DNA of 64,000 bases from Candidatus Poribacteria bacterium (GTDB lineage: Bacteria; Poribacteria; WGA-4E; WGA-3G), in NCBI GenBank assembly GCA_965232115.1, contig OZ246958.1, positions 4,098,841 through 4,162,840 of the forward strand, given 5' to 3'. Shown here one piece after another: positions 5,620 to 64,000 of the stretch (positions are counted from its first letter, which is position 1; the number at the start of each line of letters is the position of its first letter). Position numbers and translations under genes: made by a program. Under the pieces are notes generated by a model. It was not told the DNA's origin. It was given only the letters and a program-made list of their open reading frames with translations, and made no database searches.

Positions 5620-5675
5620 TGTCTGGCTCCTACAAGAATAGTGATAGACCGCGAAAGGTATTGTATCAAGATGCG

Positions 5676-8804: not shown

Positions 8805-8907
8805 AGTGTGTTCCTCCTAATCGCTGATTGGTTTCTATTACGAATGCCGTAGTCTACCATAATGTGCGGTAGATGTCAAGTTCACAGTTGTAGGACGTTT
8901 CCATACA

Positions 8908-16667: not shown

Positions 16668-16680
16668 CTGTTATAGGCAT

Positions 16681-17574: not shown

Positions 17575-17792
17575 TCAAATGCCCAATACTCTTAGCCGAT
17601 GATACCTCATCCCAGCATGGCTTAAGAATTTTTCTTGTGCAAAACCTTTATTTCCTGTATCATAAAGGCTTATGAAGATGTGTTTTATTTTTTCAGATTC
17701 TGCTTGTTAAAGTATAGCATCCTTCGCCATTTTTCTGTAGTAAAATCGCCTCCTATTGATCTCGCAAATCATCCTTGATTGAGGAGAATAAC

Positions 17793-27741: not shown

Positions 27742-27855
27742 AATGAGCGTAGCAACTCGTAAAAAAAGCATTGAAAATTGACATATCACAACTTGTATGT
27801 TATTCTTAATGACTAACCCCTTAGCAATTTGATAACCCTTTTAGGAGGTGGAACC

Positions 27856-28550: not shown

Positions 28551-31175
28551 GTGCGATACCAATTGACTTTTTGGATCTGTTTAACCATCATCATCGGTTA
28601 TTGCTTTCCAGCAGCTGCACAAGAAGCGGCACAATCCGCAAAGCCTGCGACGCAGGCAGCACCCACAGAAAAGAAAAAAGAGTTTGAAGATTTTGCCAAA
28701 GTGATTGCGGACAGTAAAAACTACGACGGCTTTTTCAAACTATACCAGAAAAAAGAAAAACTCTACTGCGAAATTCAGCCATCACAATTAGAGCAGCCTT
28801 TTCTATGCATGATTAGCCTTTCGCGCGGCTTAGGAAGAGGATTCCTTATCTCAGGAATGATAATGGACGATTGGCTCCTCGTCTGGCGACGCGTCGGCGA
28901 CAACGTGCATCTCGTGCGAAAAAATGTACGCTACCGTGCTGAGAAGGGGACACCGACTGCCCAAGCGGTTGACTACAGTTACAGCGATTCCATCTTATTT
29001 TCTCTTAAGATTGAAAGTATCCATCCACAACGAAAGAGTCTGTTAGTGGACATTTCTCCGGTCTTTATATCTGATCTGCTACCTCTGGCGCGCAGTATTG
29101 CCTCCGACGCACGCTTCGACAAAACGCGTAGCACTTGGGGAACAGTCAAGGCATTTCCAAAGAACGTAGAGTTGAGGGTCGAAGCGGTCTACACATCGCA
29201 AAGCTATATAGAAACTGTCCCTGACAGTCGTGGCATCCAGTTGACGCTACACTATAGCCTCGCTGCACTCCCATCGAACAGCTATCAGCCGCGATTGGCT
29301 GATGACAGACTCGGACACTTCATGACGACGATCAAAGATTATTCCGCTCGCGTCAGCGAAGAACCGTTTGCGCGGTACGTCCAACGGTGGCATTTGGAGA
29401 AAGCGGATAAAGATGCGAAACTCTCGCCGCCGATGGATCCGATCATCTTCTACATTGAGAAAACAGTGCCACATCGCTTCCGTCCTTATATCCGGCAGGG
29501 CATTTTGGAATGGAACAAGGCGTTTGAAAAAATTGGATTCGCCGACGCGATTGAAGCACGGATTCAGCAAGATTACGAAGACTGGGACCCCGAAGACGCG
29601 CGGTATAACACAATCCGCTGGGTGGTTGATGCAGGGTTCGCCATTGGTCCGTCCCGCGTGAACCCTTTGACAGGGCAAATACTGGATGCCGATATCCTTA
29701 TCAGTGACGTCTTCATCAGGGGGTGGCAGCGACAATATACGACCTTCTTTGATGAGTTGGAGCATGAGCGCGATCATCCGATGGATCCCGCTTCACGCTA
29801 TCGGTGCCAGATGGCATCAGGATTAGCACATCAGGTGGGACTCATGACGAGCGTTTTGCAAGCGCGAGACCTGATCGATGAGGGGGGTGAACTCCCAGAA
29901 GAGTTTATTGGGCAAGCTCTCAAAACGTTGACGATGCACGAAGTGGGACATACACTCGGATTGCGTCACAACTTTAAAGCGAGTACGATATTTTCTCTTG
30001 ACGACATAAATAAAAAAGAGGGTGAAGCACTTATCGGCTCCGTTATGGAGTACGACGCTGTGAATATCGCGCCTGAAGGCGAGAAACAGGGACATTACTA
30101 CACACCAACAATTGGGCCTTGGGACCATTGGGTGGTCGAGTATGCATATAAACCCATTAGTGCAAGCAAACCGGAAGGCGAATTAGAAGAATTGGGCAAA
30201 ATCGCTTCCCGTTCTGCGATGCCAGAACTCACGTATGCTACGGATGAAGATGCGTCTTGGTATCGCTACCGAGATCTTGATCCATTAGTCAATCGAGGGG
30301 ACCTCGGTGCCGACCCGCTTGAGTTTGCGAAACGGCGGCGAGAGATTGTCGTCGAACTCTGGGATAAGATCGCAGATAAGGTCACAAAAGAGGGAAAAGG
30401 CTATCAACGCGTCAGACAGGCATTTGGAAGGTTGCTTTATGAACACGGCTATACCATGTACCTCGCAAGCCGTTATATCGGTGGACAGTATCACCACCGC
30501 GATCACCGCGGCGATGAAAACGGACGTTTACCGTTCGTGCCGGTCCCCGCAGCGAAACAACGCGAAGCACTCGAATTCCTCAAAGAACACGCCCTCTCAG
30601 ATAGTACTTTCGATTTCCCACCGGATCTGTTGAACAGCCTGGCAATCACCCGTTGGAGCGACTGGGGAGCCGCCAGTTGGAATTCCACACGTTTCGATTA
30701 TCCCGTCCATGATGTCATTTTGACGAATCAAACCCGTATCTTGGAACGGTTGCTCTATCCGAATGTCCTTGCGCGCGTTCAGGACACAGAACTCAAGTTC
30801 CCGAAAGGTGAAGATGCGTTCACACTCCCAGAACTCTTTTCTGGCATTACAGATGCGGTTTGGGTGGACCTTGAACGGAATCTCGGAGAAATGCAGTGGT
30901 CGAATACAGAGGCGTTTATCTCCAGTTTCCGGCGCGGTTTGCAACGTGAACACCTCAAGCAACTCATCAAACTGGTGTTGGATGCCGACAGCGGGACACC
31001 TGAGGATGCGAGATCGCTTGCACGCCTTCATCTTGAGCAAATCAATACTCGGATACAACAGGTGCTTCAAAATGCACAAGGAAGACTTGACGATTATAGC
31101 GTGGCGCACCTTGAAGAGTCACAAGTTCGAGTTACGAAGGCGTTGGATGCCAACTTCCAAGTCGAGGAACGCTAA
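28551..31175 (+). CDS. secreted zinc metalloprotease, DUF4953/DUF5117-like (HEXXH), paralog 1
   Basis: Signal peptide. LTMHEVGHTLGLRHNF zincin motif. 874 aa. ~85% identical to the next gene. Confidence 0.7.
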   Translation: MRYQLTFWICLTIIIGYCFPAAAQEAAQSAKPATQAAPTEKKKEFEDFAKVIADSKNYDGFFKLYQKKEKLYCEIQPSQLEQPFLCMISLSRGLGRGFLISGMIMDDWLLVWRRVGDNVHLVRKNVRYRAEKGTPTAQAVDYSYSDSILFSLKIESIHPQRKSLLVDISPVFISDLLPLARSIASDARFDKTRSTWGTVKAFPKNVELRVEAVYTSQSYIETVPDSRGIQLTLHYSLAALPSNSYQPRLADDRLGHFMTTIKDYSARVSEEPFARYVQRWHLEKADKDAKLSPPMDPIIFYIEKTVPHRFRPYIRQGILEWNKAFEKIGFADAIEARIQQDYEDWDPEDARYNTIRWVVDAGFAIGPSRVNPLTGQILDADILISDVFIRGWQRQYTTFFDELEHERDHPMDPASRYRCQMASGLAHQVGLMTSVLQARDLIDEGGELPEEFIGQALKTLTMHEVGHTLGLRHNFKASTIFSLDDINKKEGEALIGSVMEYDAVNIAPEGEKQGHYYTPTIGPWDHWVVEYAYKPISASKPEGELEELGKIASRSAMPELTYATDEDASWYRYRDLDPLVNRGDLGADPLEFAKRRREIVVELWDKIADKVTKEGKGYQRVRQAFGRLLYEHGYTMYLASRYIGGQYHHRDHRGDENGRLPFVPVPAAKQREALEFLKEHALSDSTFDFPPDLLNSLAITRWSDWGAASWNSTRFDYPVHDVILTNQTRILERLLYPNVLARVQDTELKFPKGEDAFTLPELFSGITDAVWVDLERNLGEMQWSNTEAFISSFRRGLQREHLKQLIKLVLDADSGTPEDARSLARLHLEQINTRIQQVLQNAQGRLDDYSVAHLEESQVRVTKALDANFQVEER

Positions 31176-31224
31176 AGGATCCTATATTTCCGATTAGGAT
31201 TTTTATAAAGTCCATATATCTACT

Positions 31225-31244
31225 GGCGGGGTTGAAACCCCGCC
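31225..31244 (+). terminator. GC-rich hairpin (GGCGGGGTTGAAACCCCGCC) between the two metalloprotease paralogs
   Basis: Perfect 7-9 bp stem read directly. The trailing sequence is not U-rich, so it is either a weak terminator or a REP-like element. A similar hairpin is at 4630-4651. Confidence 0.4.
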
Positions 31245-31293
31245 AATCTTCTGATGTATAACCAAGTGTATCGTTCACTAAGGAGAAGAAACG

Positions 31294-33882
31294 ATGCGGC
31301 ATCTATTGACATTTTGGATCTGTCTCATCACAATAAGCGGTTACTGTATTTCAGTATCTGCACAAGAAACAACAGAAAAAAAACAAGAGTTTACAGATTT
31401 CGCAAAAGTGATTGAAGATAGTAAAAACTACGACGGCTTCTTCAAACTATACCAGAAAAAAGAAAAACTCTATTGTGAAATCCAACCCTCACAATTGGAT
31501 CAGCCTTTTCTATGCATGACCAGTCTTGCACGCGGCTTAGCGAGAGGACGGCTTATCTCAGGAATAATAATGGATGAATGGTTGCTCGTTTGGCGGCGCG
31601 TTGGCGATAACGTGCATCTCGTGCGAAAAAATGTGCGATACCGTGCTGAAAAGGGAACACCGACTGCCCAAGCAGTTGACTACAGTTACAGCGACTCTGT
31701 ATTATTTTCTCTTAAGATTGAAAGTGTACATCCACAACGAAAGAGTCTATTGGTCGATATTTCTCCGGTTTTTATGTCCGATTTGCCGCCACTGGCACGT
31801 CGTATTGCCGCTGATGCCCGCTTTGATAAAACACGCAGCACTTGGGGAACAATCAAGGTGTTTCCAAAGAACGTCGAATTGAGAGTCAAAGCGGTCTATA
31901 CATCGCAAAGTTACATAGAAACCGTCCCCGACAGTCGTGGCATCCAGTTGACGGTGCATTACAGCCTCGCTGCACTTCCATCCAACAACTATCAACCCCG
32001 ACCGGCTGACGACAGGCTTGGACACTTCATGACAACGATCAAAGACTATTCGGCTCAAGTTAGCGAGGAACCCTTCGCTCGTTACGTCAATCGCTGGCAT
32101 CTGGAGAAAGCCGACAAGGATGCAAAACTTTCACCCCCAAAAGATCCGATCATCTTCTACATTGAAAAAACCGTACCGCACCGCTTCCGTCCTTACATCC
32201 GGCAGGGGATCCTCGAATGGAACAAGGCGTTTGAAAAGGCGGGTTTTGTCGATGCGATTGAAGCACGCATTCAGCAGGACTATGAGGACTGGGACCCCGA
32301 AGACGCACGGTATAACACGATCCGTTGGGTGGTTGACGCAGGATTCGCCACCGGTCCCTCTCGCGTGAATCCACTGACAGGACAGATACTGGATGCCGAC
32401 ATCCTTATTACCGATGGTTTCATCAGGTCTTGGCGGCGAGAATATACAACGTTCTTTGATGAGTTAGCGCATGAGCGTGATCATCCGATGGACCCATCTT
32501 CACAATTTCAGTGTCAGATGGGATCTGGGTTGGTGCATCAGATGGGGTTCATGGCAAGTGTCTTGGATGCGCGGGATCTGACTGGCGAAGGCGGTGAACT
32601 CCCAGAAGAGTTTCTCGGAGAGGCACTCAAAGCACTGACGATGCATGAAGTGGGACATACATTGGGATTGCGCCATAACTTTAAAGCGAGTACAATTTTC
32701 TCTCTCGACGACTTGAACAAAAAGAATGGAGAAGCCATCCTCGGTTCTGTCATGGAATACGATGCTGTGAACATCGCACCCGAAGGTGAAAAACAAGGGC
32801 ATTACTATACGCCGACAATCGGCCCCTGGGACTACTGGGTGATTGAATATGCCTATAAACCCACTAATGCGAGCAAGCCAGAAGATGAATTAGAGGCGTT
32901 GCGCAAAATCGCTACCCGTGCGCCAACGCCGGAACTGACGTATGCTACAGATAGCGATGCTTATGGGTATCAACATCGAGATATTGACCCATTGGTCAAC
33001 CGCTGGGACCTCGGCGACGATCCACTTGAATTTGCCAAACAACGTCGTGAGATTGTTGTTGGACTCTGGGATAAGATTGCAAACAAAGTTACAAAAGAAG
33101 GCGAAGGCTATCAACGAACCAGGCGGGCTTTCCGTACACTCATTGTTGAACACGGTTATACCATGTACCTCGCAAGTCGTTACATCGGTGGGCAGTACCA
33201 CCACCGCGATCATCGCGGCGATGAAAATGGACGGTTGCCCTTCGTGCCGGTCCCCGCAGCGAAACAACGCGAAGCACTCGAATTCCTCAAAGAACACGCC
33301 CTCTCGGACAAAGCCTTCAATTTCCCGCCGGACTTGCTTAACAGTCTGGCAATCACCCGTTGGAGCGATTGGGGAGCCGCCAGTTGGGATTCTACCCGTT
33401 TCGATTACCCGGTACATGAGATCATTCTGCGCTATCAAAATCGCATTCTGGAACGCTTGCTCTACCCGAACGTTCTCGCACGGATTCAAGACACAGAGTT
33501 AAAGTTCCCTAAAGGTGCGGATGCGTTCACACTCCCTGAACTTTTTTCAGGCATTACGGATGCGGTCTGGACAGAATTGGATCGGAATATAGGAGAAAAG
33601 CAGTGGTCGAATACGGACGCGTTCATCTCCAGTTTCCGGCGCGGTTTACAACGCGAACATCTCAAGCGGCTTATCAAACTGGTATTAGATGCCGACAGTG
33701 GCACGCCTGAGGACGCAAGATCCCTCGCACGTCGCCATCTCGGGCAAATTAACACTCGCATACAGCGCGTGCTCCAAACCGCGCAAGGCAGACTTAACGA
33801 TTATAGCTTGGCACACCTCCAAGAGTCTCAAGTCCGAATTGCGAAGGCGTTAGATGCCAACTTCCAAGTCGAGGAACGCTAA
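31294..33882 (+). CDS. secreted zinc metalloprotease, DUF4953/DUF5117-like (HEXXH), paralog 2
   Basis: AAGGAG RBS, signal peptide, LTMHEVGHTLGLRHNF. 862 aa. Confidence 0.7.
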   Translation: MRHLLTFWICLITISGYCISVSAQETTEKKQEFTDFAKVIEDSKNYDGFFKLYQKKEKLYCEIQPSQLDQPFLCMTSLARGLARGRLISGIIMDEWLLVWRRVGDNVHLVRKNVRYRAEKGTPTAQAVDYSYSDSVLFSLKIESVHPQRKSLLVDISPVFMSDLPPLARRIAADARFDKTRSTWGTIKVFPKNVELRVKAVYTSQSYIETVPDSRGIQLTVHYSLAALPSNNYQPRPADDRLGHFMTTIKDYSAQVSEEPFARYVNRWHLEKADKDAKLSPPKDPIIFYIEKTVPHRFRPYIRQGILEWNKAFEKAGFVDAIEARIQQDYEDWDPEDARYNTIRWVVDAGFATGPSRVNPLTGQILDADILITDGFIRSWRREYTTFFDELAHERDHPMDPSSQFQCQMGSGLVHQMGFMASVLDARDLTGEGGELPEEFLGEALKALTMHEVGHTLGLRHNFKASTIFSLDDLNKKNGEAILGSVMEYDAVNIAPEGEKQGHYYTPTIGPWDYWVIEYAYKPTNASKPEDELEALRKIATRAPTPELTYATDSDAYGYQHRDIDPLVNRWDLGDDPLEFAKQRREIVVGLWDKIANKVTKEGEGYQRTRRAFRTLIVEHGYTMYLASRYIGGQYHHRDHRGDENGRLPFVPVPAAKQREALEFLKEHALSDKAFNFPPDLLNSLAITRWSDWGAASWDSTRFDYPVHEIILRYQNRILERLLYPNVLARIQDTELKFPKGADAFTLPELFSGITDAVWTELDRNIGEKQWSNTDAFISSFRRGLQREHLKRLIKLVLDADSGTPEDARSLARRHLGQINTRIQRVLQTAQGRLNDYSLAHLQESQVRIAKALDANFQVEER

Positions 33883-35833: not shown

Positions 35834-36143
35834 GCGCGGTGAAATCTGGTTAGCCGACCTTGGCGTGGCGGCAAAGACACGCCCTGTTCTGGTACTCAGC
35901 GTCCCTTTTTCAGATTCTGATTACGCGCTAATTACTGTCGTACCGCACACGACAAGTTCAAGAAGGTCCAATTTTGAAGTAAACCTTTCTGTGGCTGCTT
36001 TAAGACCCGGTGCTTTCAATGTTCAAGGACTGATGGCTGTCCCACCCGCCAAGTTCATTCGCAAACTCGGAGCATTACGGTCTGCGCAAATGGAACAGGT
36101 CGCGGCTAGAGTAAAAAAGTGGCTCGGATTTTCATCCAATTAA
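35826..36143 (+). CDS. PemK/MazF-family type II toxin (endoribonuclease)
   Basis: Hallmark N-terminus PKRGEIWLADLG...KTRPVLVLS. 105 aa. Confidence 0.8.
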   Translation: MPKRGEIWLADLGVAAKTRPVLVLSVPFSDSDYALITVVPHTTSSRRSNFEVNLSVAALRPGAFNVQGLMAVPPAKFIRKLGALRSAQMEQVAARVKKWLGFSSN

Positions 36144-37183
36144 CCAGCAGCCCCGATCTCAACTTCCTGCAAAACTGCTGCTGCCCGTTGTGCCAACTCA
36201 GTTGTAGTATCTCGCTTGAGAGCCCGATTTAAGTGTAAGATGGCGCGTTCATCTCCATCTCTTGCGAGTTCCAAAGCCTCCTCAAATCCTTTGTTTCCGT
36301 AACTGAAATCCCTTGCGATAACCGTCAAGTCAAGATCCTTCCAATAATACTGCAGTTCATCAGATTTCCAATTCTCATAGACATGTTCCCACGTAAGGGA
36401 GTTGAAAATATTCAGGTGCGGTTCAAGCATGTGCTCAGCGATCGGGTCATCGACAGCCTGATAGCGGTTGTCGAGCGACACGCGAAGTCGATCTTCAGTC
36501 AAATTCGGCAGTGCCTTATGGATCGTCAAAGCTGGGAAGATGAGCGTATCGCCAACTTCATAGTTCGTGGAGTGCCATTCACCCGACAATTCGTCCTCAT
36601 TAACGCAGAGACTGCCAGCACCGAGCGAAAAGTGGTGTTCCATGACCTTGTTGATCTTATGTGATCCGGGTAGGACTGCTAAGCCACCTAACTCAATCGG
36701 ACAATCTCCGACGGGTGCCCAACAGGTATAGGTCTGGAAATTGCCTTGGAAGTGGACGAAATCTTGATGGATCGGGGTTGTATGTGCCGTGTACTTCGGG
36801 AACCAGAGGCGCGCAATCTTTTGCGGATGCGGTAGCACCTCTCTACCGACAATCTTTTCCACCATATCGACGACTTCGTGCCAGTGACCGGAACGGTGGA
36901 ACGCTTCTAATTTATAGACTTCATGGTACACGTCTGTATATTCGGGATCGCCTTCGGTACATTGGGTCGAAATATCAGCGATGCCGTCCATCGGGTCGGT
37001 CCCCGCGACGAGCCAACCGCCCTTCTGCATTGTCGTTAGCATCTCTCGCCGTAACGCCCAGAGTTTGTCGGGATCTTGTAGGCACTTGAAGAAGAGATAC
37101 CCTTCTTCTGAGATCCGGTGCCGCAACTCTTCTGGATCGTTCATCGCATCGTTGGATATGCGAAGTTCTTTTATTTTTTCCAT
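36140..37183 (-). CDS. phytanoyl-CoA dioxygenase (PhyH) family protein
   Basis: PIHQDFVHF motif. The stop overlaps the toxin gene end on the opposite strand. Confidence 0.7.
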   Translation of the reverse strand: MEKIKELRISNDAMNDPEELRHRISEEGYLFFKCLQDPDKLWALRREMLTTMQKGGWLVAGTDPMDGIADISTQCTEGDPEYTDVYHEVYKLEAFHRSGHWHEVVDMVEKIVGREVLPHPQKIARLWFPKYTAHTTPIHQDFVHFQGNFQTYTCWAPVGDCPIELGGLAVLPGSHKINKVMEHHFSLGAGSLCVNEDELSGEWHSTNYEVGDTLIFPALTIHKALPNLTEDRLRVSLDNRYQAVDDPIAEHMLEPHLNIFNSLTWEHVYENWKSDELQYYWKDLDLTVIARDFSYGNKGFEEALELARDGDERAILHLNRALKRDTTTELAQRAAAVLQEVEIGAAG

Positions 37184-37295
37184 CTGAATTTCTCCTCGCA
37201 TCTATTCGTGTCGGTCTCCGTAGATGGGGTACTTCTCTTTTTTCCGTATTCATAGTATAACACATACAAAACGAAAGATTCAATTTTTTTCTTTC

Positions 37296-54217: not shown

Positions 54218-54350
54218 GCTGCCTCATTAAGTAGGGCTATGCCTGGATCAAAACTTGCTTTGACTTTGTATCCAAGATAGGATATACTATAGATATAGGC
54301 AATGACTTCTGGCTATGCCCTTTCAAATATTCGCAAACAGGGGGAACCCA

Positions 54351-54731
54351 ATGCAAGCAAATGAACAGATCCTCCAAAAACTGGAGGATATAGAGAAGCA
54401 TTTTACAAATCTTGAGTCCGATGTAAAAGCACTTGATGCTGCACAGAAGGCACGTGACGACCTCCAGAAAGTCCAGAACGACGCACAAGAACAGCGATTG
54501 AACCGGATCGAGTCTGAACTGAAGGAGACTCGAACGGAAATGATTGAGCTCCGAAAAGAGGGGACCGACCTGCGTGTGAGTCAGACGAGAGTTGAAGCAA
54601 AACTTGATGGGCTTATTGATCATATAAAGGAACAAAAAATTGACAAAAGTGAAAACTGGAAAATAACCGGAATCGTCGCTTCTATTCTCATCGGTGTGGC
54701 AGCCTTCTTGAAATCTTTCTTTTTCGGATAA
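54351..54731 (+). CDS. coiled-coil protein with a C-terminal TM anchor, hypothetical
   Basis: Heptad-rich Q/E/K/L sequence, then ITGIVASILIGVAAFL. AGGGGGA RBS. Confidence 0.45.
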   Translation: MQANEQILQKLEDIEKHFTNLESDVKALDAAQKARDDLQKVQNDAQEQRLNRIESELKETRTEMIELRKEGTDLRVSQTRVEAKLDGLIDHIKEQKIDKSENWKITGIVASILIGVAAFLKSFFFG

Positions 54732-54783: not shown

Positions 54784-56316
54784 TCACATCCTTTGGTACT
54801 CTCCAATAATTACCTCTACAAGGCTCTCTATTGAAGCTTCCTTTGCAATCACGTTAACCTGCACGCCATATTTCACTGCCGTCTTTTGCGTTGTGGGACC
54901 AATCACGGCGACCTTGACATCAGCGAGTAATACTTCAGGAGCATGTGTCGGGAACATCTCCAAGAAGTTTGTAACCGTTGAGGAACTGGTGAACGTGACG
55001 AAATTAATTCTGCCGCTCAAGAGGTCGGCTTCAATTTCATCTCGCCTATTATCGCCATCGCTTGCTACTTTGACGGTATCGTAGAGAGGTACATCATCGA
55101 CGCGTGCCCCTTTCTCACGCAAACCGTTGGGTAGGTCGGCAGTGGCAATTTTCGCGCGCGGGAGGAGGATCTTCTTCTCGTTGACATCTGTCATTTCAGC
55201 AGCGATAGCACTTCCATGGGAGTGCGATGGAACAAAATCGGGATGAATGCCGATGTGGTTAAGAGCATTTACTGTTTTTGGTCCAACGGCACAGATTTTG
55301 TTTGTGCTGAATGCGCGAGCATCCTTCCCATTTTCGCGTAAGCGTTCATAGAAGATTTCCACGGCGTTAACACTTGTAAAGATAATCCAATCGTATCCTT
55401 TCGGAGAAGGTATGTCCTCGTTCTCAATAGGTTGAATCTCTATGGTAGGGAATTGGATAACTTCGGCACCGTTTGCCTCCAAAAGTTCAGCGAACCCGCT
55501 CGCTTGGGCTCGGGCACGTGTAACAAGTATTCGTTTTCCGAAAAGTGGTTTGGTGTCAAACCATCGGAGTTGTTCACGGAGCCGGTTCACTTCACCGACG
55601 ACGATAACTGCCGGACTTTCCAGTTGGGCTGCTTCAACCTTTTGAACAATATCATCCAAGGTGCCTTGGACGACCTGCTGTTGTGGTGTGGTCCCCACAC
55701 GGACCAAACTCACAGGGGTTTGCGGGTCTCTGCCGTGTGTTATAAGCCGTTCAGCAATCTGATGCAGATGCGCAACACCCATGTAAACGACGAGCGTATC
55801 TACCGCTGTGGCAAGGTCCTCCCAATTGATGTTTGAATCCGGACGTAATGCGGCGGAATGCCCTGTAACAAACGCTACTGACGAAGCGTAGTCGCGATGT
55901 GTGACCGGAATACCCGCATAAGCAGATGCGGCAATCGCAGAAGTGATACCCGGAACCACCTCAAACGGAACACCCGCCTCGGTGAGAGCGACTGCCTCTT
56001 CGCCACCCCTTCCGAAGATATAAGGGTCTCCGCCTTTGAGACGCACGACCACTTTACCGGCTTTCGCATGTTCAACAAGCATCTGATTGAGTTCAGTTTG
56101 GCGCGTCGCTCGGATTCTTGGGTCGGGTGCTCGGATTTTCTCGGTGTGCGCCGGGCAGTGTTCCAAGAGGGCATCGTTCAGCAATAAATCATAGATGACA
56201 ACATCTGCGCGTTGGAGACACTCTACACCTTTGAGTGTGATAAGTTTTTGATCGCCTGGACCCGCACCTACAATATAAACAATGCCGGTATCCGATTTAT
56301 CTGAAGATGCGTTCAT
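54784..56316 (-). CDS. cobA-hemD: bifunctional uroporphyrinogen-III C-methyltransferase / uroporphyrinogen-III synthase (CobA-HemD fusion)
   Basis: N-terminal SUMT signature VYIVGAGPGDQKLITLKGVECLQRADVVIYD. The C-terminal ~250 aa are HemD-like. Confidence 0.8.
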   Translation of the reverse strand: MNASSDKSDTGIVYIVGAGPGDQKLITLKGVECLQRADVVIYDLLLNDALLEHCPAHTEKIRAPDPRIRATRQTELNQMLVEHAKAGKVVVRLKGGDPYIFGRGGEEAVALTEAGVPFEVVPGITSAIAASAYAGIPVTHRDYASSVAFVTGHSAALRPDSNINWEDLATAVDTLVVYMGVAHLHQIAERLITHGRDPQTPVSLVRVGTTPQQQVVQGTLDDIVQKVEAAQLESPAVIVVGEVNRLREQLRWFDTKPLFGKRILVTRARAQASGFAELLEANGAEVIQFPTIEIQPIENEDIPSPKGYDWIIFTSVNAVEIFYERLRENGKDARAFSTNKICAVGPKTVNALNHIGIHPDFVPSHSHGSAIAAEMTDVNEKKILLPRAKIATADLPNGLREKGARVDDVPLYDTVKVASDGDNRRDEIEADLLSGRINFVTFTSSSTVTNFLEMFPTHAPEVLLADVKVAVIGPTTQKTAVKYGVQVNVIAKEASIESLVEVIIGEYQRM

Positions 56317-56327
56317 CAGGAGTTCCC

Positions 56328-57242
56328 CTATAACCTCAACAGTTCAGTTGCACCACTACTTTGAAGTTTTTCGGCTACGATTTCGCCCAAGTGTTTTGCT
56401 GCATCAGGTATCCCGGTGGCAGTCTCTACAATACGATGGATTCCCTCCGGGTGACACACAGTGGCAATAAGCGAAAGTTCACCATCAACATGCCAAGCAT
56501 GTGCACCGACAGGGATTTGGCATCCACCGCCGAGGCTTTCCAATACAGCCCTTTCAGCAGTAGCCTCAGCAACCGTCTGCGAATCGTTAAGAGGCGAGAG
56601 CAATGCTTTGATAGCACTATCACCTTCTCGTGCTTCAATCGCAAGGGCACCCTGTCCGACAGCGGGGACCATCCGTTCTATATCAAAATATTGCGTGATA
56701 ATTTCGGGGTCAAGGAGGCGTTTGATACCGGCTGCAGCGAGTATAATGCCGTCAAGGTCAGTTTCACGAAGCTTGCGTAACCGCGTATCGACGTTCCCTC
56801 GGACATCAACGACCCGCAGATTTGGACGCATACCCAGAAGTTGCGCCTTCCGACGTGGACTTGTAGTGCCGATCTTTGCACCACCGAGCAAATCTTCCAA
56901 GGGGAACCCCGTGGCAGTGATAAGCACATCTCGGGGATCCTCTCGCTCTGGAATAGCTGCGATGCAGAGACCTTGTGGCAACTCTGTCGGAAGATCCTTC
57001 AAACTATGGACTGCGATGTCAATGTCCCGCGTCAAGAGCGCGTCTTCTATCTCCTTGGTAAATACCCCTTTACCGAGCCCAAGGAGTGAACCCTCTGGAT
57101 TGGTGTCCCCAGTGGTTTTGATGACCTCTATATGGACCTCAAGATTCGGAAAATGGGTTTCCAATTGATTTCTAACAAATTGTGCTTGCCAGCGCGCGAG
57201 TTGACTACCACGTGTGCCGATTGTAAGCGAGTTCTGCATCAA
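56328..57242 (-). CDS. hemC: hydroxymethylbilane synthase (porphobilinogen deaminase)
   Basis: IGTRGSQLARWQA and the dipyrromethane-cofactor region GGGCQIPVGA. Confidence 0.9.
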   Translation of the reverse strand: MMQNSLTIGTRGSQLARWQAQFVRNQLETHFPNLEVHIEVIKTTGDTNPEGSLLGLGKGVFTKEIEDALLTRDIDIAVHSLKDLPTELPQGLCIAAIPEREDPRDVLITATGFPLEDLLGGAKIGTTSPRRKAQLLGMRPNLRVVDVRGNVDTRLRKLRETDLDGIILAAAGIKRLLDPEIITQYFDIERMVPAVGQGALAIEAREGDSAIKALLSPLNDSQTVAEATAERAVLESLGGGCQIPVGAHAWHVDGELSLIATVCHPEGIHRIVETATGIPDAAKHLGEIVAEKLQSSGATELLRL

Positions 57243-57291
57243 AGTTCCTTGTGACTTAAAGGAGTGTGTAATGACCGAGGTATAGATTTAC

Positions 57292-58593
57292 CTACAACTC
57301 CGAATTATCATCGTTAACATCCAGTTCAAACAGTTCTTGCAAGGCTTGGACATATTGGGCATGGTCGGCATCACCATCGTTGACAGCACATCGGAGATTT
57401 TGCATGGGATGATGGAGCAGTTTTTTAACGATCGCCTGCGTCATAGAGGTGATAGCAGCCTCCTGCTGATCGGAGAGTGTTGTTTTGTAGAAGCACGCTT
57501 GCAATTCGCTATCAGCGATCTGCCGAAACTGCTGATGGATTGCCTTAATTGTAGGATTAACCTGAAAGACTTGTAATTGGTTGTAGAACCCTTTGGCTTC
57601 TTCAGTGACGATCCGTTCTGCCTGGACGGCTTCTTGCTGTCTGTCTTGGAGGTTGGAGGCAACAACAGCTTCAAGGTCATCAATATTATAGAGAAAAGCG
57701 TGGTCAATCTTACTCACATCTGGATCAATATCGCGCGGAACTGCGATGTCAATGAGAAACATATACCGATGCTTACGTTTTCGCATGAGGTCGGCGAGGG
57801 GTTTCCGCTTGATAAGGTACTCAGGGGCATTGGTAGAACTAATAACAATGTCGGCATCAATAAGGAAACCGAGGTCGCTCTCATAAGCAAGAGGTGTCCC
57901 GTTAAACTTCTCGGCGACTTTGACGGCGCGCGTATAAGTGCGGTTTGCAACGATGACCTTGGAAACACCATTCGCAACAAGATGCTTCGCAGTCAGTTCA
58001 CTCATCTCACCGGCACCGAGAATCGCGACAGTTTTGCCTTCAAGCGTATTAAAAATTTTCTTGGCGAGTTCAACAGCGGCGTAACTAATAGAGACAGCAC
58101 CCGTAGTGATTGCTGTCTCGGAACGGACGCGTTTACCAACACTAAAGGCTTTGGTGAAAAGCCGATTGAGGATAGAGCCTACAGCACCCGATGAACGCGA
58201 AAGGTCGTAAGCGGTTTTGATTTGCCCCAATATTTGGGACTCACCGACGACCATAGAATCAAGGCTCGATGTCACTCTGAAGAGATGCTGGATCGTCCCA
58301 AGGTTATGGCGGAGATAGCACCATTTCTTAAGCGATTCGACGCGCATCTGATGGAATTGGGCAAGAAACTCAAGGAGCATTTTGGCGGCTGCATCAGCAT
58401 TTCGAATTGCATGCGCAACCGCATAAAGTTCCACCCGGTTACAGGTAGAGAGAATCACTGCCTCTTGAACCTGATCAGATTCGCACAAGCGTTGGAGGGA
58501 TTCAATAAGTTGTTCTTCGGAAAACGCCAACTTCTCCCTAAACTCAATGGGAGCAACATGATGGCTGGTTCCGACGGAGACAAGCTGGTTCAT
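57292..58593 (-). CDS. hemA: glutamyl-tRNA reductase
   Basis: ILSTCNRVELY catalytic-Cys motif, GESQILGQIK, NADPH domain ILGAGEMSE. Confidence 0.9.
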   Translation of the reverse strand: MNQLVSVGTSHHVAPIEFREKLAFSEEQLIESLQRLCESDQVQEAVILSTCNRVELYAVAHAIRNADAAAKMLLEFLAQFHQMRVESLKKWCYLRHNLGTIQHLFRVTSSLDSMVVGESQILGQIKTAYDLSRSSGAVGSILNRLFTKAFSVGKRVRSETAITTGAVSISYAAVELAKKIFNTLEGKTVAILGAGEMSELTAKHLVANGVSKVIVANRTYTRAVKVAEKFNGTPLAYESDLGFLIDADIVISSTNAPEYLIKRKPLADLMRKRKHRYMFLIDIAVPRDIDPDVSKIDHAFLYNIDDLEAVVASNLQDRQQEAVQAERIVTEEAKGFYNQLQVFQVNPTIKAIHQQFRQIADSELQACFYKTTLSDQQEAAITSMTQAIVKKLLHHPMQNLRCAVNDGDADHAQYVQALQELFELDVNDDNSEL

Positions 58594-58706
58594 TTTTTTT
58601 CAAGAAAAGTTAAACAAGGTGAACACGCGTACATTTGGTAAATTATATCACATATTAGGGGTCGTGTCAAATTTAGAATTCAGTCTATCCACACACCTGC
58701 TTTACA

Positions 58707-59549
58707 TTACCGGTACGTATGCATGCTGTCTAAAAAGAGGTCTACACCAACATAGGTACAGAGAACAGCAACAAACCCGAGGATTGCGGCGTAGGCGGCT
58801 CTGCGTCCGTGCCATCCCCAAAATTGGCGGATACCGATTTGCGCCACATAGATAAGCCACGTCACCAGTGTAGAGATTACCTTCGCATCAATCCATCTCC
58901 ACGGCACATCTCGGATATATTGCGTCCAGAGACTTCCAACAATAACTCCCATTGTGAGCAGAATTACGCCGAGAATCGTGCAGCGATATCCAAGTTCATC
59001 GGAAATACCGAGAGAGGGTAGAAGGTTGTCAAGAAGAGCATCCGCTTTTCTACGAATTTTCCGCTCTGCTATCAGATACATCAACCCAAATCCAAAAGCA
59101 GCAATGAATGCGGCGTAGGCAAGAAAAATAAGTGAGGTATGCGCCAAAAGCCAGTAGTTTTGCAAGGGTTCGGGGAGGGCAGCGGCGTGCGTTGCGAAAC
59201 TATATGAAATGAGTATCGCAATAAAAGCAACCGGCATGACGAAGCTGCCGAGTGTGCGGAGCTGCGTTAAACGCACAATGAGTAGATAAATCAGCGTGAT
59301 CGCCCATGCGAAAAAAGCAATGGAGTCTGTCCAGTGTGTCATCGGAAAATGCCCCTGCAATAGCCACCAAAGTGCGATAAAAACAGTCAAAAAGGCGAAA
59401 CCGATGATGGTACACCAAAAAGCAATTCGTTCGATAGTTGGGCGAATTACGGAGGCTTCAGTCCGATTGCCGATAGCCAGCGAAAGGGTGTGAAAAATGC
59501 TTGCTGCTAAGTATATTAAAAGGGTGACGAGAAACAGAAAATTTATCAT
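58707..59549 (-). CDS. cytochrome c assembly protein-family (CcsA/HemX-like) membrane protein
   Basis: 8 TM helices. Trp-rich segment (WTQYIRDVPWRWIDAKV). Sits immediately upstream of hemA, like B. subtilis hemX. Confidence 0.55.
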   Translation of the reverse strand: MINFLFLVTLLIYLAASIFHTLSLAIGNRTEASVIRPTIERIAFWCTIIGFAFLTVFIALWWLLQGHFPMTHWTDSIAFFAWAITLIYLLIVRLTQLRTLGSFVMPVAFIAILISYSFATHAAALPEPLQNYWLLAHTSLIFLAYAAFIAAFGFGLMYLIAERKIRRKADALLDNLLPSLGISDELGYRCTILGVILLTMGVIVGSLWTQYIRDVPWRWIDAKVISTLVTWLIYVAQIGIRQFWGWHGRRAAYAAILGFVAVLCTYVGVDLFLDSMHTYR

Positions 59550-59612
59550 ATTCCCTGCTTTTTGAGACCATAAGGGCAGACAGCGTGTAGATATAACTGT
59601 CCTGCTGATGTG

Positions 59613-60476
59613 TTATTCGTTTTCATTTTCAGAGTTGGCGAGTTGTGCTTGGAGACGTTTTAACTCGGCTTCTATTGCCTGTCGTCGCTCTGATTCTTCT
59701 CTGGCGAGTCTTTCAGCTGCGAGGCGGCGTTCGGATTCGCTTACTGCGCGTTCTTCTGCTGCGAGGCGGCGTTCGGATTCGCTTACTGCGCGTTCTTCTG
59801 CTGCGAGGCGTAGGTAATGTTCTTCAACAGAAGTTGTAATGGGGGTGCCATCGGGGAGATAGGGGCGTAACAACCTGACATGCGTATGCAGTTGATCCTC
59901 CCATCGGAAATAGAGGTTTAGTGCTTGACTAAATAGCCCGCCTTGTACGTCTGGGACGATTTCAAGGATATCCCCCGATGGGCTTCGCCGCCACCCTCGA
60001 AACTCTGGGGGTTTCTTCATTTCAGGTTGATGGATGTAGTACTCTTGCGCCCCCATATCGTCGAGATAGACTTCAAATTTTCCATGCCGATCCCGATAGG
60101 CTGTTGAATCGGAAAGAAATTCAAAAATAGCTGTAGGGACGGCACCTTCTGACCATGTATAAAAACTCCGCCGCTGTGGATACTTCTCGACACCAAAAAC
60201 AACAAAAACATCCGGAGCAACGAATTTTCTGATGTCGCCTTCACGGTAGTAGATAAAACTGTCAACACCGACATAAATGTGTGGATGGGTTTGAAAGTAT
60301 CGCGAGATCTGGTCAGAAAAAACACGAATTTGTTCAGCGTGGTATCCGGTTGCGGACATAGGCTCGTCGTCCTCATAAGGGTAGCCTTCTATAAAAACGG
60401 TCGGTTTTCCGCTCGCTTTTGGAAAGACCGGCATATACTTTCTTTGCTTGAATTCAAAATCGTTTCGCGTATTCAT
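59613..60476 (-). CDS. Uma2-family (DUF820) endonuclease-fold protein with a repeat-containing coiled-coil tail
   Basis: Core (APDVFVVFGV, FEFLSDSTAY) is homologous to 27856-28527. The C-terminus has 14-aa repeats (AAEERAVSESERRL). Confidence 0.65.
   Translation of the reverse strand: MNTRNDFEFKQRKYMPVFPKASGKPTVFIEGYPYEDDEPMSATGYHAEQIRVFSDQISRYFQTHPHIYVGVDSFIYYREGDIRKFVAPDVFVVFGVEKYPQRRSFYTWSEGAVPTAIFEFLSDSTAYRDRHGKFEVYLDDMGAQEYYIHQPEMKKPPEFRGWRRSPSGDILEIVPDVQGGLFSQALNLYFRWEDQLHTHVRLLRPYLPDGTPITTSVEEHYLRLAAEERAVSESERRLAAEERAVSESERRLAAERLAREESERRQAIEAELKRLQAQLANSENENE
59719..59810. repeat. perfect 42-bp tandem repeat (2 full copies plus 8 nt) inside the Uma2 gene
   Basis: gcgaggcggcgttcggattcgcttactgcgcgttcttctgct at 59719-59760 is repeated identically at 59761-59802. 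42 is a multiple of 3, so the frame is kept. Confidence 0.9.
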
Positions 60477-60596
60477 GATTTTCTTCCTTTGTGCATCAAG
60501 GCAGGAATGTCTCTTATCCCCGTGAGATCGTTAAAGCAGTTCTCAACCGTTTTGAAAGTCTCGAAAAAGGCGTAACGTTTTTATTCTGATGCAATT

Positions 60597-61772
60597 TTAG
60601 CAACATTGGTGTGCTTTGTCAAGTAGTTTGGAGACAAAGGCATTCGCATGTTCCAGCCTACCATTCCGAACCCAGTTGAAGAAGCATTCAGCAGAACACT
60701 CCGGATTTGTAAGTCCAAGGCAGCATTTTGTAGGAGGGGTTTGTAACCCCAATACTGTATCTTCAACGCTGTCAATGAGCAACTCAAAAAAGTCAGCACG
60801 CTTCTTGGGTGTCGGAAAAGACTTAAGAATTTCAGAGCGGCGTGCACCGAGGAATTCGATAAATGCCCCGTACCCATTGTTTTCAAATTGGTTCGCGAGT
60901 TTCTTACGGAGTTGTTCTGCCTTCTCAGTTCCCGCACTGCTTCTGGCAGCGACGCTAATTATCAGGTTATCATCTGTTACAAGATGGGGTGTGAAATGGG
61001 TCCCGGCACCCGGTTCATCAAGATACTCCCAAATGAATCTGTCTCCATTTTCACACGGCGTGTTCACCGTAGATGTTTCGTCTGCAATAACGAGGAACGC
61101 ATCTTCAAGATAATGCCGATCCACAGTGTCGGGTGCCGGACATAAAACCGAAGCACCAGACTGGCGTAACAGCGAAACACGACGTTCAATCTCCTCCGTT
61201 TTCTGCTTACATAAAACAACACATTTTCGATTTTCTAACAGGAGATAGACCGGATACGGCAGTCCTTGGTTCTTAATCGGTACAGGTTTTTCAGCCTCAT
61301 AACCGAGCGTGTATAACGAATCTGCGTTTAGGAGGGTCTCAAAATATTCACGGATACGGCGGCTGGTTGCGGGACTTTTACCACTCGTTGAGATGCTAAG
61401 CATGAGTTCGCCGTCGGTTACGACCGAGGCAGCGGCGAAGGTGCATTGTGGGATCACGTCAACGACGTTGACTAAACGGATTTTATTTTTATCGTGTGCT
61501 TCCGCGAAAACAGCGGAATTGATATCTGTAAAATCAGTGGCAGCACAGACAAGAAAGTAGCCGTTGGTATCGCCTGGCTTCAACTGCCGCTTGTGCCAAC
61601 GGATTGTGCCGAGATGTGCAAGGAAAGTTAGCAATTCCGTTGCGTCCGGACTGATTACGGTAACGTCACCGCCACTGAGAAGCATAGCGACGACTTTTCG
61701 TTCGGCAACGGTGCCGCCACCGACAACGAGACATTTTCGGTCTTGAAGGTTTATGTATGCTGGATAAAACAT
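60597..61772 (-). CDS. precorrin-2 dehydrogenase/sirohydrochlorin ferrochelatase (SirC/CysG-N-like), internally duplicated
   Basis: N-terminus INLQDRKCLVVGGGTVAERKV (Rossmann GGG). A second, degenerate copy at ~aa 190 (LLLENRKCVVLCKQ...). Cys-rich C-terminal tail. Confidence 0.6.
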   Translation of the reverse strand: MFYPAYINLQDRKCLVVGGGTVAERKVVAMLLSGGDVTVISPDATELLTFLAHLGTIRWHKRQLKPGDTNGYFLVCAATDFTDINSAVFAEAHDKNKIRLVNVVDVIPQCTFAAASVVTDGELMLSISTSGKSPATSRRIREYFETLLNADSLYTLGYEAEKPVPIKNQGLPYPVYLLLENRKCVVLCKQKTEEIERRVSLLRQSGASVLCPAPDTVDRHYLEDAFLVIADETSTVNTPCENGDRFIWEYLDEPGAGTHFTPHLVTDDNLIISVAARSSAGTEKAEQLRKKLANQFENNGYGAFIEFLGARRSEILKSFPTPKKRADFFELLIDSVEDTVLGLQTPPTKCCLGLTNPECSAECFFNWVRNGRLEHANAFVSKLLDKAHQCC

Positions 61773-61857
61773 TTTAATGGTTGTCGGTCATCAGTTTTCA
61801 GTTATCGGTCAAAGAAGGTTCTAATTAACCATGCCCGTCTTAACCGACGACTATTTC

Positions 61858-62838
61858 TTATGACTCTCGTGAGACGACGTAATTTGCGAGTTGTTGTAGC
61901 GCGAGACGGGCGGGTGTCTCAGGAAAGGCTGCTAACGCTGCTTTGGCGCGGTCGGCGTAATCTTGTGCGATTTTCAGGCAGTAGGCTTCGACCCCATACC
62001 GCTGGAACAGAGATTCAACAAAAACAATCGCCTCTGTTTCGTCTGTATTGGGATTCAGGACTTTTTCCAGCATCTGTTTCTCATCATCATTACAAACACT
62101 CCGAGCATAAATGATCGGAAAAGTGAGTTTCCCTTCACGGAGGTCCCCGAACGTGTTTTTTCCCAATTTATCTGGGTTTTCTGCAAAATCAAGCACATCA
62201 TCAACAATTTGGAAGGCGATCCCAATTTGTTGTCCATAGACAGTAAGTGCTTCAATCTGTTTGGAATCGGTTGTGCCGAGATGCGCACCGAGGGTACAAG
62301 AAGCCGTAATCAGTTTACCCGTCTTGAAACTGATAATTTTGAGGTATTCGGTTTCGGAGATGTCGAAATCGCCACTTTTGTATGCGTGTATGACTTCACC
62401 TTCACACATCGCTTGCGTGGTATCAGCGAGGATTGCCATCGCTGGATCATCGGCGCGACGGGAGACGAGCATAGAGAGGACACGAGCGTGTAAGTAGTCT
62501 CCAACGAGGACTGCAACTTTATTACCCCACCTGGCATGTAAGGTTTCGCGCCCGCGGCGGATAGCTGCTTCATCAAGTACATCGTCATGAACAAGCGATG
62601 CGACATGGATGAGTTCAACAACAGCAGCGAGGGTATGTGTATCGCTGCCCTCATATCCACAGACTTTAGCAGAAAGCACAACAAGAATCGGACGGAGACG
62701 CTTACCACCCCCTCCAACGACGTGCTGGACTGCCATGTCAACGAAACTATATTCACTTGCGCTCTCTTCAGTAAGTCTCGTCTCAACAGCAGCGAGGTCG
62801 TCGGCAATCAATTGGACGATTTGATCAAAGTTGGACAT
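61858..62838 (-). CDS. polyprenyl diphosphate synthase (trans-IPPS, hepta/octaprenyl type)
   Basis: First DDxxD LVHDDVLDEA and second DDVLDF aspartate-rich motifs. Confidence 0.85.
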   Translation of the reverse strand: MSNFDQIVQLIADDLAAVETRLTEESASEYSFVDMAVQHVVGGGGKRLRPILVVLSAKVCGYEGSDTHTLAAVVELIHVASLVHDDVLDEAAIRRGRETLHARWGNKVAVLVGDYLHARVLSMLVSRRADDPAMAILADTTQAMCEGEVIHAYKSGDFDISETEYLKIISFKTGKLITASCTLGAHLGTTDSKQIEALTVYGQQIGIAFQIVDDVLDFAENPDKLGKNTFGDLREGKLTFPIIYARSVCNDDEKQMLEKVLNPNTDETEAIVFVESLFQRYGVEAYCLKIAQDYADRAKAALAAFPETPARLALQQLANYVVSRES

Positions 62839-62881
62839 AATATAGGGCAGCCCTTATGGCTGCCCTTCCCCTATTTTCCCC

Positions 62882-64000
62882 TTAGAGATCAGCCAATACT
62901 TGTGTTGCGGCTTGAACGGTTTTGTTGATATCGTCTTCGGAGTGAACCAAAGAGACAAAACCTGCCTCAAACTGAGAGGGTGCGACATAGACACCCCGTT
63001 CTACGAGTCCCCAGAAGTATTGTTGAAAACGATCCGTATCCGCTGTGCGGGCACCATCGGCATCTGTGACGGTTTCCGGCGTGAAGTAAAGCATCAACAT
63101 CGAACCGACACGACTGTGCCATGCGTCAACATTGTGTTCTTCTGTCGCCTCAGCGAGACCGTCTGCGAGCGCAGCAGCACTGTTCTCAAGTTGTTCATAA
63201 ACCCCTGGTTCAGCGAGCTTTTTCAGCGTTGTTATGCCTGCAGTAACGGCTAACGGATTACCCGATAGTGTTCCTGCTTGATAGACATCGCCTTCCGGTG
63301 CAACGCATCGCATGATGTCCCGTTTCCCGCCGTAAGCCCCAACAGGTAAACCGCCCCCAATAATCTTTCCTAAACAGGTCATGTCTGGCGTGACGTTATA
63401 GCGAGATTGTGCGCCGCCATAAGCCACTCGAAACCCTGTGATAACTTCATCAAAAATGAGTACAATGCCGTGCGCCTCCGTAATCTCACGGAGCTCATTG
63501 AGATAACCATCTCTGGGAGGGATGATACCCATATTCCCCATAATCGGTTCCAGAATGAGACATGCGATTTCGTCTGGATTGGCTTCTATAGTTTCTCGGA
63601 CAGCATCGGCGTCGTTAAATGGTACGGTGAGTGTATTGCGTGCGAAATCTTCAGGGACACCACCGCTATCAGAAAGCCCGAAAGTAGCGACCCCTGAACC
63701 TGCTTTTGCCAAGAGATAGTCCACGTGACCGTGATAGCATCCGTCAATTTTAATGATCTTATCGCGCCCGGTATACCCGCGTGCGACGCGAATCGCAGTC
63801 ATTGTGGCTTCAGTGCCAGAGTTGACGAGACGGACCTGCTCGATCGAAGGCACTGCATTAACAATGATTTCGGCGAGTTCCGTCTCCAATGTTGTCGGCG
63901 CACCAAAACTGGTGCCGTTTGCTGCTATCGCACTGATAGCGTCTACAACACTCGGATGGGCGTGTCCCAAAACCAAGGGACCCCAAGAGGCAACATAGTC
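62882..64000 (-). CDS. hemL: glutamate-1-semialdehyde 2,1-aminomutase (N-terminus beyond the window end)
   Basis: [16 protein letters not shown] and later class-III aminotransferase blocks. The PLP-Lys region and ORF continue past 64000. Confidence 0.85.

Follow-up and report, generated by a model that had tools for sequence, protein, structure and literature searches.

Why does a cluster of early tetrapyrrole genes contain a long precorrin-2 dehydrogenase gene and a nuclease-like gene with a perfect tandem repeat, and where does its precorrin-2 go? These questions are raised by positions 54784–64000 of a 64-kb stretch of DNA (hereafter, the window) from a sponge-associated member of Candidatus Poribacteria. 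The minus strand carries all eight open reading frames (ORFs) of this region: hemL, a polyprenyl synthase gene, a sirC-like gene, a Uma2-like gene, a CcsA/HemX-like gene, hemA, hemC, and cobA-hemD. An earlier reading made from the letters alone (the sequence-only reading) had named these genes in this order, and both identities and order are borne out by the ORF calls and by Pfam and NCBIfam scans of the window proteins, with scores compared to the curated cut-offs. We read the region as a conserved tetrapyrrole "trunk" cluster that includes a phylum-wide variant of SirC and that, in one sub-clade, later received a Uma2-like insertion; we put the probability of this reading at about 0.6. The cluster and its cobA-hemD fusion are of ordinary, textbook kinds. 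In the long SirC, a known enzyme has a variant specific to the phylum, and the mechanism proposed for it can be tested.

A tetrapyrrole cluster and its conservation in relatives

Acting in sequence, the cluster enzymes would convert glutamyl-tRNA to uroporphyrinogen III, then to precorrin-2, and finally to sirohydrochlorin or siroheme. The gene for glutamate-1-semialdehyde 2,1-aminomutase, hemL (62882–64000, on the minus strand like all genes of the cluster), matches NF000818 at 555 bits; its 5′ end is cut by the window edge, because the profile match begins only at position 64. Glutamyl-tRNA reductase is encoded by hemA (57292–58593; TIGR01035, 449 bits, cut-off 210) and hydroxymethylbilane synthase by hemC (56328–57242; TIGR00212, 340 bits, cut-off 164). 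The 510-residue product of cobA-hemD (54784–56316) is a predicted fusion of an N-terminal uroporphyrinogen-III C-methyltransferase (SUMT) to a C-terminal uroporphyrinogen-III synthase. TP_methylase (PF00590) covers residues 13–223 at 179 bits (cut-off 27.8), and HEM4 (PF02602) covers residues 275–501 at 220 bits in the same uninterrupted ORF. The SUMT part also matches TIGR01469 (307 bits, cut-off 185) and NF004790 (314 bits, cut-off 198), and a GAGPGD motif lies at residues 17–22. The fusion is of an already known type, as the sequence-only reading had suggested in pointing to Desulfovibrio: a passage of PMC3004389, citing Lobo 2009, describes a bifunctional uroporphyrinogen synthase/SUMT (DVU0734) in D. 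vulgaris.

Two further genes belong to the cluster. The trans-polyprenyl diphosphate synthase (326 aa, 61858–62838) scores 248 bits against PF00348, and its best NCBIfam matches (heptaprenyl and octaprenyl) all fall under their cut-offs. The 280-aa integral membrane protein encoded at 58707–59549 matches PF01578 at 101 bits (cut-off 29.9). We call it HemX/CcsA-like rather than a clear CcsB because it scores 144.8 bits against the CcsB equivalog TIGR03144, under the cut-off of 187.6; by eye, its WWD-like stretch is degenerate (WRWID).

One genome per species was scanned, which gave 80 loci with a sirC gene whose product is 60–86% identical to that of the window. Seventy-nine are titled Poribacteria and one is a record named "uncultured bacterium". 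When searched by tblastn with the window proteins, all 80 loci show the same colinear order, namely one to seven DUF3108-like genes, hemB, hemL, the polyprenyl synthase gene (pps), sirC, the HemX-like gene, hemA, hemC, and cobA-hemD. The HemX-like gene lies between sirC and hemA in 78 of the 80 sponge-type loci, and pps is directly upstream of sirC in every one of them as well as in pelagic Poribacteria. The fusion gene is present at full length (~500 of 510 residues aligned) in 65 of the 80, these being the loci whose fetched stretch or contig reaches the gene. Of the 76 loci whose sequence extends far enough, 75 have hemB as the immediate upstream neighbour of hemL. The sequence-only reading had remarked that the window holds no hemB, hemE, hemN, or hemH. 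None of the four was found in the window, but the missing hemB is a window-edge artefact, because relatives carry the gene just where the window ends; from the relatives, hemB is predicted to lie beyond position 64000 in the window's genome as well.

Pelagic Poribacteria (Tara Oceans; loci L083–L085) keep the core pps-sirC-hemA-hemC-cobA/hemD. The HemX-like gene, hemB, and hemL are not in their cluster, and ccmE, ccmF, and ccmH follow directly after cobA-hemD (~15400–18750 of these loci).

The relatives also differ around this core. The tandem DUF3108-like paralogs directly upstream of hemB (~1–6600 in L055–L074, and in other loci) vary in copy number among Poribacteria lineages. A second insertion hot spot lies in the spacer that separates the HemX-like gene from hemA, with gaps of 1.5–1.85 kb in L015, L022, L037, L041, L042, L046, L068, L076, and L082 and a trypsin-like/TPR gene in L002 (13102–14571). 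Two relatives have IS605 OrfB/TnpB-like genes no more than 10 kb from the cluster (L001, 19169–20182, minus strand; L002, 2351–3565, plus strand).

A long SirC with a degenerate second module

The 391-aa SirC-like protein (60597–61772, minus strand) scores 128 bits against TIGR01470 (cut-off 62.3), and precorrin-2 dehydrogenase activity, with or without ferrochelatase activity, is predicted for it. Its layout is Rossmann, dimerisation, degenerate Rossmann, dimerisation, and helical domain (R-d-R′-d′-h), followed by a cysteine tail. Residue conservation was taken from a 71-sequence alignment whose members are 32–87% identical to the window protein. Module 1 (residues 1–150; 61323–61772) consists of a canonical NAD-binding Rossmann domain (PF13241 at residues 6–113, 96.7 bits) with the glycine loop VVGGGTVA at residues 16–23, and a dimerisation domain (PF14824 at residues 120–142). 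GGG18–20, N102, D105, T129, and P134 are invariant. The last four align with N101, D104, S128, and P133, which line the active site of CysG, with S128 replaced by the invariant threonine.

Module 2 (residues 171–296; 60885–61262) repeats module 1 in degenerate form and lacks the glycine loop. The sequence-only reading had proposed an internal duplication with a degenerate second Rossmann copy, and two comparisons recover it: BLASTP of residues 1–163 against 164–391 (E = 1e-6) and hhalign of the profiles of residues 1–150 and 165–300 (97.6% probability, E = 3e-12, 121 columns), which pairs residues 2–147 with 172–295. These hhalign values come from the 71-sequence alignment; on a shallow alignment, the probability was 72%. 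Positions Y173, P174, R198, E249, T261, and P262 of module 2 are invariant. An all-helical domain of the CysG_dimeriser type follows (residues 300–335; 60768–60875), seen as a PF10414 match below the cut-off and as helices at residues 301–334 of the structural model. The tail then carries the motif CCx7Cx3C (C350, C351, C359, and C363), followed by FxN366 (60684–60725). The four cysteines and N366 are invariant across the 71 sequences and are also kept in members 35–54% identical to the window protein. The cysteine-rich tail noticed earlier thus holds a conserved motif; the terminal QCC noted with it is not conserved.

An AlphaFold2 model built on the diverse alignment reached a predicted local distance difference test score (pLDDT) of 86.9 and a predicted template modelling score of 0.84, and its secondary structure follows the order R-d-R′-d′-h. 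It replaced a model built on an alignment of only 76–89% identical sequences (pLDDT 43). In the diverse-alignment model, the secondary-structure order of module 2 equals that of module 1 minus one β-α unit. The best solved structures retrieved by Foldseek were CysG (1.6e-10), SirC (3dfz; root-mean-square deviation of 2.3 Å over 141 columns), and Met8p, with TrkA-like tandem Rossmann regulators next.

The full-length architecture is confined to few sequences. Among 1.84 billion representative proteins, full-length matches fall into about six clusters at 50% identity, and more than 9,000 other clusters match residues 2–150 only. Among the matches listed in three sequence searches, every full-length member with an organism name is from Poribacteria. 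Likewise, homologs 75–100% identical to the window protein are all from Candidatus Poribacteria where named, among the 120 matches listed. Separately, a protein of 455 aa (P0250), encoded on a 1.5-kb Logan contig of unassigned taxon, is a complete SirC-SirC tandem in which both copies have the glycine loop and the helical domain. It possibly gives a picture of the ancestral state of long SirC.

The domain order suggests how the protein may work. CysG-B is a domain-swapped dimer: each cavity is formed by the Rossmann fold of one chain together with the helical domain of its partner, and substrate is seen bound at only one site per dimer (PMC7018833). In Poribacteria, the Rossmann-plus-dimerisation module has been duplicated in tandem; copy 1 keeps the NAD loop and the CysG-type active-site residues, copy 2 has lost the NAD loop, and one helical domain follows copy 2. 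If the modules pair like subunits, this helical domain would face the intact first Rossmann fold because of its placement after module 2. What is missing, namely the NAD loop of copy 2 and a helical domain behind copy 1, corresponds precisely to the would-be second site, which points to a pseudo-dimer with one site. By analogy with CysG-B, we infer that long SirC is a single chain that mimics the domain-swapped SirC/CysG dimer and has one active site. Tandem duplication with complementary loss would then have turned a homodimer that works one site at a time into a one-site single chain, giving enzymologists a natural "half-of-sites" construct of the SirC/CysG/Met8p family.

A similar argument by analogy applies to the tail: a metal or an Fe-S cluster is the most likely ligand of its four invariant cysteines, with the Fe-S clusters of class II chelatases as a precedent. 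A 2Fe-2S cluster occurs in plant SirB and in some ferrochelatases. To our knowledge, no Fe-S cluster has been described in a class III (SirC/Met8p-type) chelatase. For CbiX-long, a passage of PMC7242693 cites a 4Fe-4S centre in an MxCxxC motif. If the cysteines of long SirC hold Fe-S or iron, class III chelatases would have their first example of such a centre, through which the output of siroheme or heme could be tied to iron or redox state.

A Uma2-like gene inserted in one sub-clade

Between sirC and the HemX-like gene, the window encodes a 287-aa protein (59613–60476, minus strand) that the sequence-only reading had placed in the Uma2/DUF820 family. The protein itself has no Pfam or NCBIfam match, and PF05685 is not found even at E values up to 10. 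The assignment holds through a paralog elsewhere in the window (27829–28527, plus strand; 232 aa), which matches PF05685 at E = 2e-21, is 39% identical to the 287-aa protein (E = 4e-24), and ends in a short Glu/Arg/Ala-rich helical tail. Of 120 homologs listed, 11 have a PF05685 match, and one is labelled "Uma2 family endonuclease" by NCBI. The residues of a PD-(D/E)xK site (APD89, E119-F-L-S, and K133) are kept in at least 97% of these 120 homologs and align in the paralog. The layout is a nuclease-fold core (~residues 1–210) with a charged repeat tail, and the family is multi-copy in Poribacteria genomes, with several matches on the same contigs.

Synteny places the arrival of this gene within the history of the cluster. 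It is found between sirC and the HemX-like gene in 18 of 79 distinct loci, always in the same orientation, and the loci that bear it have a SirC at least 73.7% identical to that of the window. None of the 34 deeper-branching loci with SirC identity below 73% has it; their sirC–HemX-like gaps are mostly 11–60 bp and never exceed 364 bp. Pelagic Poribacteria also lack a Uma2-like gene at the cluster. Because of its absence from these 34 deep loci and the pelagic lineages, the ancestral state has sirC beside the HemX-like gene, with the Uma2-like gene inserted secondarily. Comparison with relatives thus agrees with the earlier suggestion of an insertion. The interruption is not a recent one, however: the gene is shared at the same site by a sub-clade and is eroded to remnants in the closest relatives. 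Only its first 57 codons are left in L001, and residues 1–221 in L037. In L003 (~11100–11240), a close relative, a deletion has joined sirC at its 3′ end, in frame, to the final residues of the Uma2 tail, giving a 401-aa product (P0005) with a chimeric SirC C-terminus ending in ...ELKRLQAHVANRENKSE. L014 has a clean empty site with both flanks. These remnants and the empty site indicate that the insertion is old.

A member of the multi-copy family, with a leader of its own, would thus have inserted between sirC and the HemX-like gene in one sub-clade, after which it would have been inherited, lost, or eroded. The leader is a conserved stretch of ~75 nt upstream of the gene (60477–60552, minus strand), with a 53-nt core that shows 0–11 mismatches across 12 loci, L001 and L028 being the same contig. 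It travels with the gene, since in L025, where two Uma2-like copies flank sirC, it is also found upstream of the second copy at the other site (8895–8973). The leader is better conserved than the coding sequence, and a hairpin may form over the ribosome-binding site. An RNA element was considered and set aside: Rfam gave no match to the leader, the only regional hit (SNORA11, E = 0.06, under the gathering score) lies elsewhere, and the alignment contains no covariation or compensatory pairs. The leader is an unexplained conserved element that may act as a promoter or, as a hairpin, mask the ribosome-binding site. A 6-bp CATCAG found at both insert edges when compared with the empty site of L014 was judged too short to be evidence of a target-site duplication.

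The tail of the protein contains the perfect 42-bp tandem repeat that had drawn attention to the gene. Tandem Repeats Finder (score 191) reports two copies plus 11 bp, and period-42 identity is exact over 59716–59810. The repeat encodes RLAAEERAVSESER twice, as 14-aa units of the C-terminal tail, which is built of Glu/Arg-rich units of 7 and 14 aa. At this site, the number of 14-aa units ranges from two to five among orthologs, whose lengths are 273–315 aa; repeat number thus varies among species. Within one gene, the 14-aa units are often near-identical yet differ between genes, and lengths in the family cluster by 7 aa (259, 266, 273, 280, 287, 294, 301, and 315), with other lengths between. 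The tail expands and contracts in 21- and 42-bp units. Because orthologs vary in unit number, the perfect pair in the window is one case of ongoing unit duplication or homogenisation, and the tail evolves by unit gain and loss. Together, the Uma2-like data provide a dated case of insertion, inheritance, and decay for a family of essentially unknown biology.

Several sequence patterns in the cluster resemble transcription signals. A near-consensus promoter-like site (TTGACA, 17 nt, TAAAAT, with TG; 11/12 by pattern match only) overlaps the sirC stop codon (60594–60622, minus strand) and is also kept in L014; the Uma2-like gene sits behind this site and the conserved leader. Directly upstream of hemA, in the ccsA-hemA spacer (58642–58670, minus strand), a sigma-70 promoter-like site (TTGACA, 17 nt, TATAAT, with the extended −10 TG) matches the consensus at 12/12 positions, which is unusually perfect for a natural promoter; this too is a consensus match only. 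A G+C-rich terminator-like hairpin (62844–62866, minus strand; 9-bp stem, 7 G-C pairs, pattern match only) lies between hemL and the polyprenyl synthase gene.

Outside the cluster, the window encodes an ankyrin-repeat protein (2943–3806, minus strand), four PhyH-family dioxygenase paralogs (4864–6443, minus; 26986–27741, plus; 36140–37201, minus), and two tandem DUF4953 Met-zincin paralogs (28551–33882, plus strand), a gene content typical of a sponge symbiont. Between an Nramp transporter gene and cobA-hemD, a 138-aa ORF (54315–54731, plus strand) encodes a coiled coil and a C-terminal transmembrane helix and gave only weak, sub-threshold family matches.

Fate of precorrin-2, alternatives, and known systems

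Where the precorrin-2 goes is the less certain part of the picture. This branch of the cluster is likely to feed mainly siroheme. Family scans of the window proteins found no hemE, hemN, hemY, hemH, chdC, or ahb gene in the 64 kb. Since late and early heme genes commonly lie apart in genomes, ~20–60 kb without the late ones says little. Full-text and supplement literature searches on the late heme steps of Poribacteria gave incidental matches at most.

One alternative is that CobA-HemD and SirC channel all uroporphyrinogen III to precorrin-2 and siroheme, with heme then made by AhbABCD. We consider this unlikely, although it has some appeal. AhbC and AhbD are radical-SAM enzymes, whereas Poribacteria have been described as heterotrophs that are mainly aerobic; fusion of cobA to hemD and linkage of sirC to hemA are also known from organisms without an Ahb route, for example in clostridial B12 operons; the separation of late from early heme genes weakens the argument from absence; and no ahb gene was seen in any fetched sequence (the window and the flanks of relatives). 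Those same sequences, as far as the flanks are annotated with Pfam, also lack hemE, hemN, hemY, hemH, and chdC, and the pelagic cluster runs straight into ccmEFH, both of which would suit such a route. As in the window, archaeal users of the alternative route are reported to cluster their SUMT and precorrin-2 dehydrogenase genes with the early hem genes (PMC3004389), and the same paper puts DVU1463, the precorrin-2 dehydrogenase gene of D. vulgaris, at a distance of two locus tags from DVU1461 (hemA), in addition to describing, in the passage mentioned above, the bifunctional DVU0734. Expression of B12 import by Poribacteria (PMC8546597) likewise helps this alternative, in that it argues against a corrinoid destination. 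Less probable still is a stronger version that adds the long SirC itself, in which SirC would belong to a class not described before, a pseudo-dimer in one chain that acts as precorrin-2 dehydrogenase/chelatase and has a CCx7Cx3C centre binding Fe-S or iron, and would form the committed entry to a siroheme-dependent heme pathway in a largely aerobic phylum. If true, this would account for the tight linkage of sirC and cobA-hemD to hemA and, in pelagic lineages, to ccmEFH. That the branch mainly feeds cobamide synthesis of the anaerobic type, with cobalt insertion by CbiK/CbiX, seems very unlikely. Fusions of cobA to hemD are typical of B12 operons. Sirohydrochlorin is the cobalt-insertion substrate of the anaerobic B12 route (PMC7242693), but neither the window nor the flanks of relatives contain cbi or cob genes, and the transcriptomes that indicate B12 import (PMC8546597) speak against synthesis.

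Two further alternatives concern individual genes. The second half of SirC could be an independent regulatory or ligand-binding domain, for example one whose cysteines sense heme, iron, or redox state and tune HemA or SirC, with the protein dimerising normally. The invariant positions of module 2 suggest more than a scaffold, sirC always immediately precedes either hemA or the HemX-like gene, and TrkA-like tandem Rossmann regulators are the next-best structural matches. We nevertheless think this improbable: the complementary losses in copies 1 and 2 are what a one-site pseudo-dimer predicts, and the Pfam scans matched no regulatory domain family. The Uma2-like gene, for its part, might be a functional, selected member of the heme cluster instead of a selfish or neutral passenger. 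Its orientation agrees with the cluster in 18 of 18 loci, its predicted catalytic residues are intact, and it is full-length in 16 species-level genomes. Yet it is absent from 61 of the 79 loci, all deep branches included, is eroded in the closest relatives, belongs to a family with paralogs elsewhere (27829–28527 in the window and the second copy in L025), and evolves about twice as fast as its neighbours, so that we find the idea hardly credible.

The preferred reading, a conserved trunk cluster with a phylum-wide SirC variant and a later Uma2-like insertion, has points to answer as well. For SirC, PF14824 (23.0, cut-off 25) and PF10414 (19–22.7, cut-off 23) score just under the Pfam thresholds; the structural match to 3dfz, at 2.3 Å over 141 columns, speaks for the fold. 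The loop just ahead of the cysteine motif and at its start is modelled with low confidence, with residues 339–347 below 50 and block means of 47 (341–350) and 80 (351–360). Searches with Pfam at E values up to 10 matched the cysteine tail to no known Fe-S or zinc family, and membership in such a family, which had been considered, was set aside. The pseudo-dimer is a deduction from domain order and literature, with structural comparison limited to summary fold matches. Precorrin-2 may go to siroheme only, to heme via Ahb, or to corrinoids. At the Uma2 site, distances between orthologs are about twice those of the flanks and neighbour genes and do not track flank distances (Spearman 0.13); given the narrow range of flank distances, this comparison does not decide between vertical descent and replacement, and gene conversion or replacement by paralogs is possible.

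Set beside known systems, the cluster combines familiar parts in its own way. In Firmicutes operons of the hemAXCDBL type, HemX is a CcsA-family membrane protein encoded beside hemA that regulates glutamyl-tRNA reductase. The Poribacteria cluster resembles these operons in having a ~280-aa PF01578 protein encoded directly upstream of hemA, followed by hemC and hemD. It differs in that hemB-hemL lie upstream, hemD is fused to cobA, pps and sirC lie inside, and the HemX-like gene is missing from the pelagic version. A HemX-type control of HemA abundance would be an analogy drawn from the position upstream of hemA only. D. vulgaris offers a parallel for the precorrin-2 branch, as DVU0734, according to the passage cited above, likewise unites SUMT and uroporphyrinogen-III synthase on one polypeptide and a precorrin-2 dehydrogenase gene lies near hemA in both; unlike D. 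vulgaris, the Poribacteria host is not a sulfate reducer. The Uma2-like protein shares with the Uma2/DUF820 (PF05685) putative endonucleases a homologous core, the conserved Asp, Glu, and Lys, and a multi-copy distribution in genomes. In contrast to typical Uma2 proteins, the Poribacteria subfamily falls under Pfam detection, has a Glu/Arg-rich tail of 7- and 14-aa units whose number varies among orthologs, and is preceded by the conserved ~75-nt leader.

Long SirC belongs, like the Fe-S class II chelatases, to the step at which sirohydrochlorin is chelated, and like them it is extended at the C-terminus by a cysteine-rich stretch, but it is a class III enzyme with a different cysteine spacing, and its metal binding is predicted by analogy. 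It shares Rossmann, α/β dimerisation, and C-terminal helical domains with SirC (Bacillus megaterium, 3dfz), CysG-B (Salmonella, 1pjq), and Met8p (yeast, 1kyq), the family of its best matches in both sequence and structure, and the equivalents of CysG N101, D104, and P133 are identical and invariant, with threonine (T129) in place of S128. No member of this solved family has the CCx7Cx3C tail or the duplication, in which the Rossmann-plus-dimerisation unit occurs twice per chain with one helical domain and without a glycine loop in copy 2. Whereas SirC, CysG-B, and Met8p are R-d-h chains of ~200 aa that form domain-swapped homodimers, the window protein is a 391-aa chain of the order R-d-R′-d′-h with a cysteine tail.

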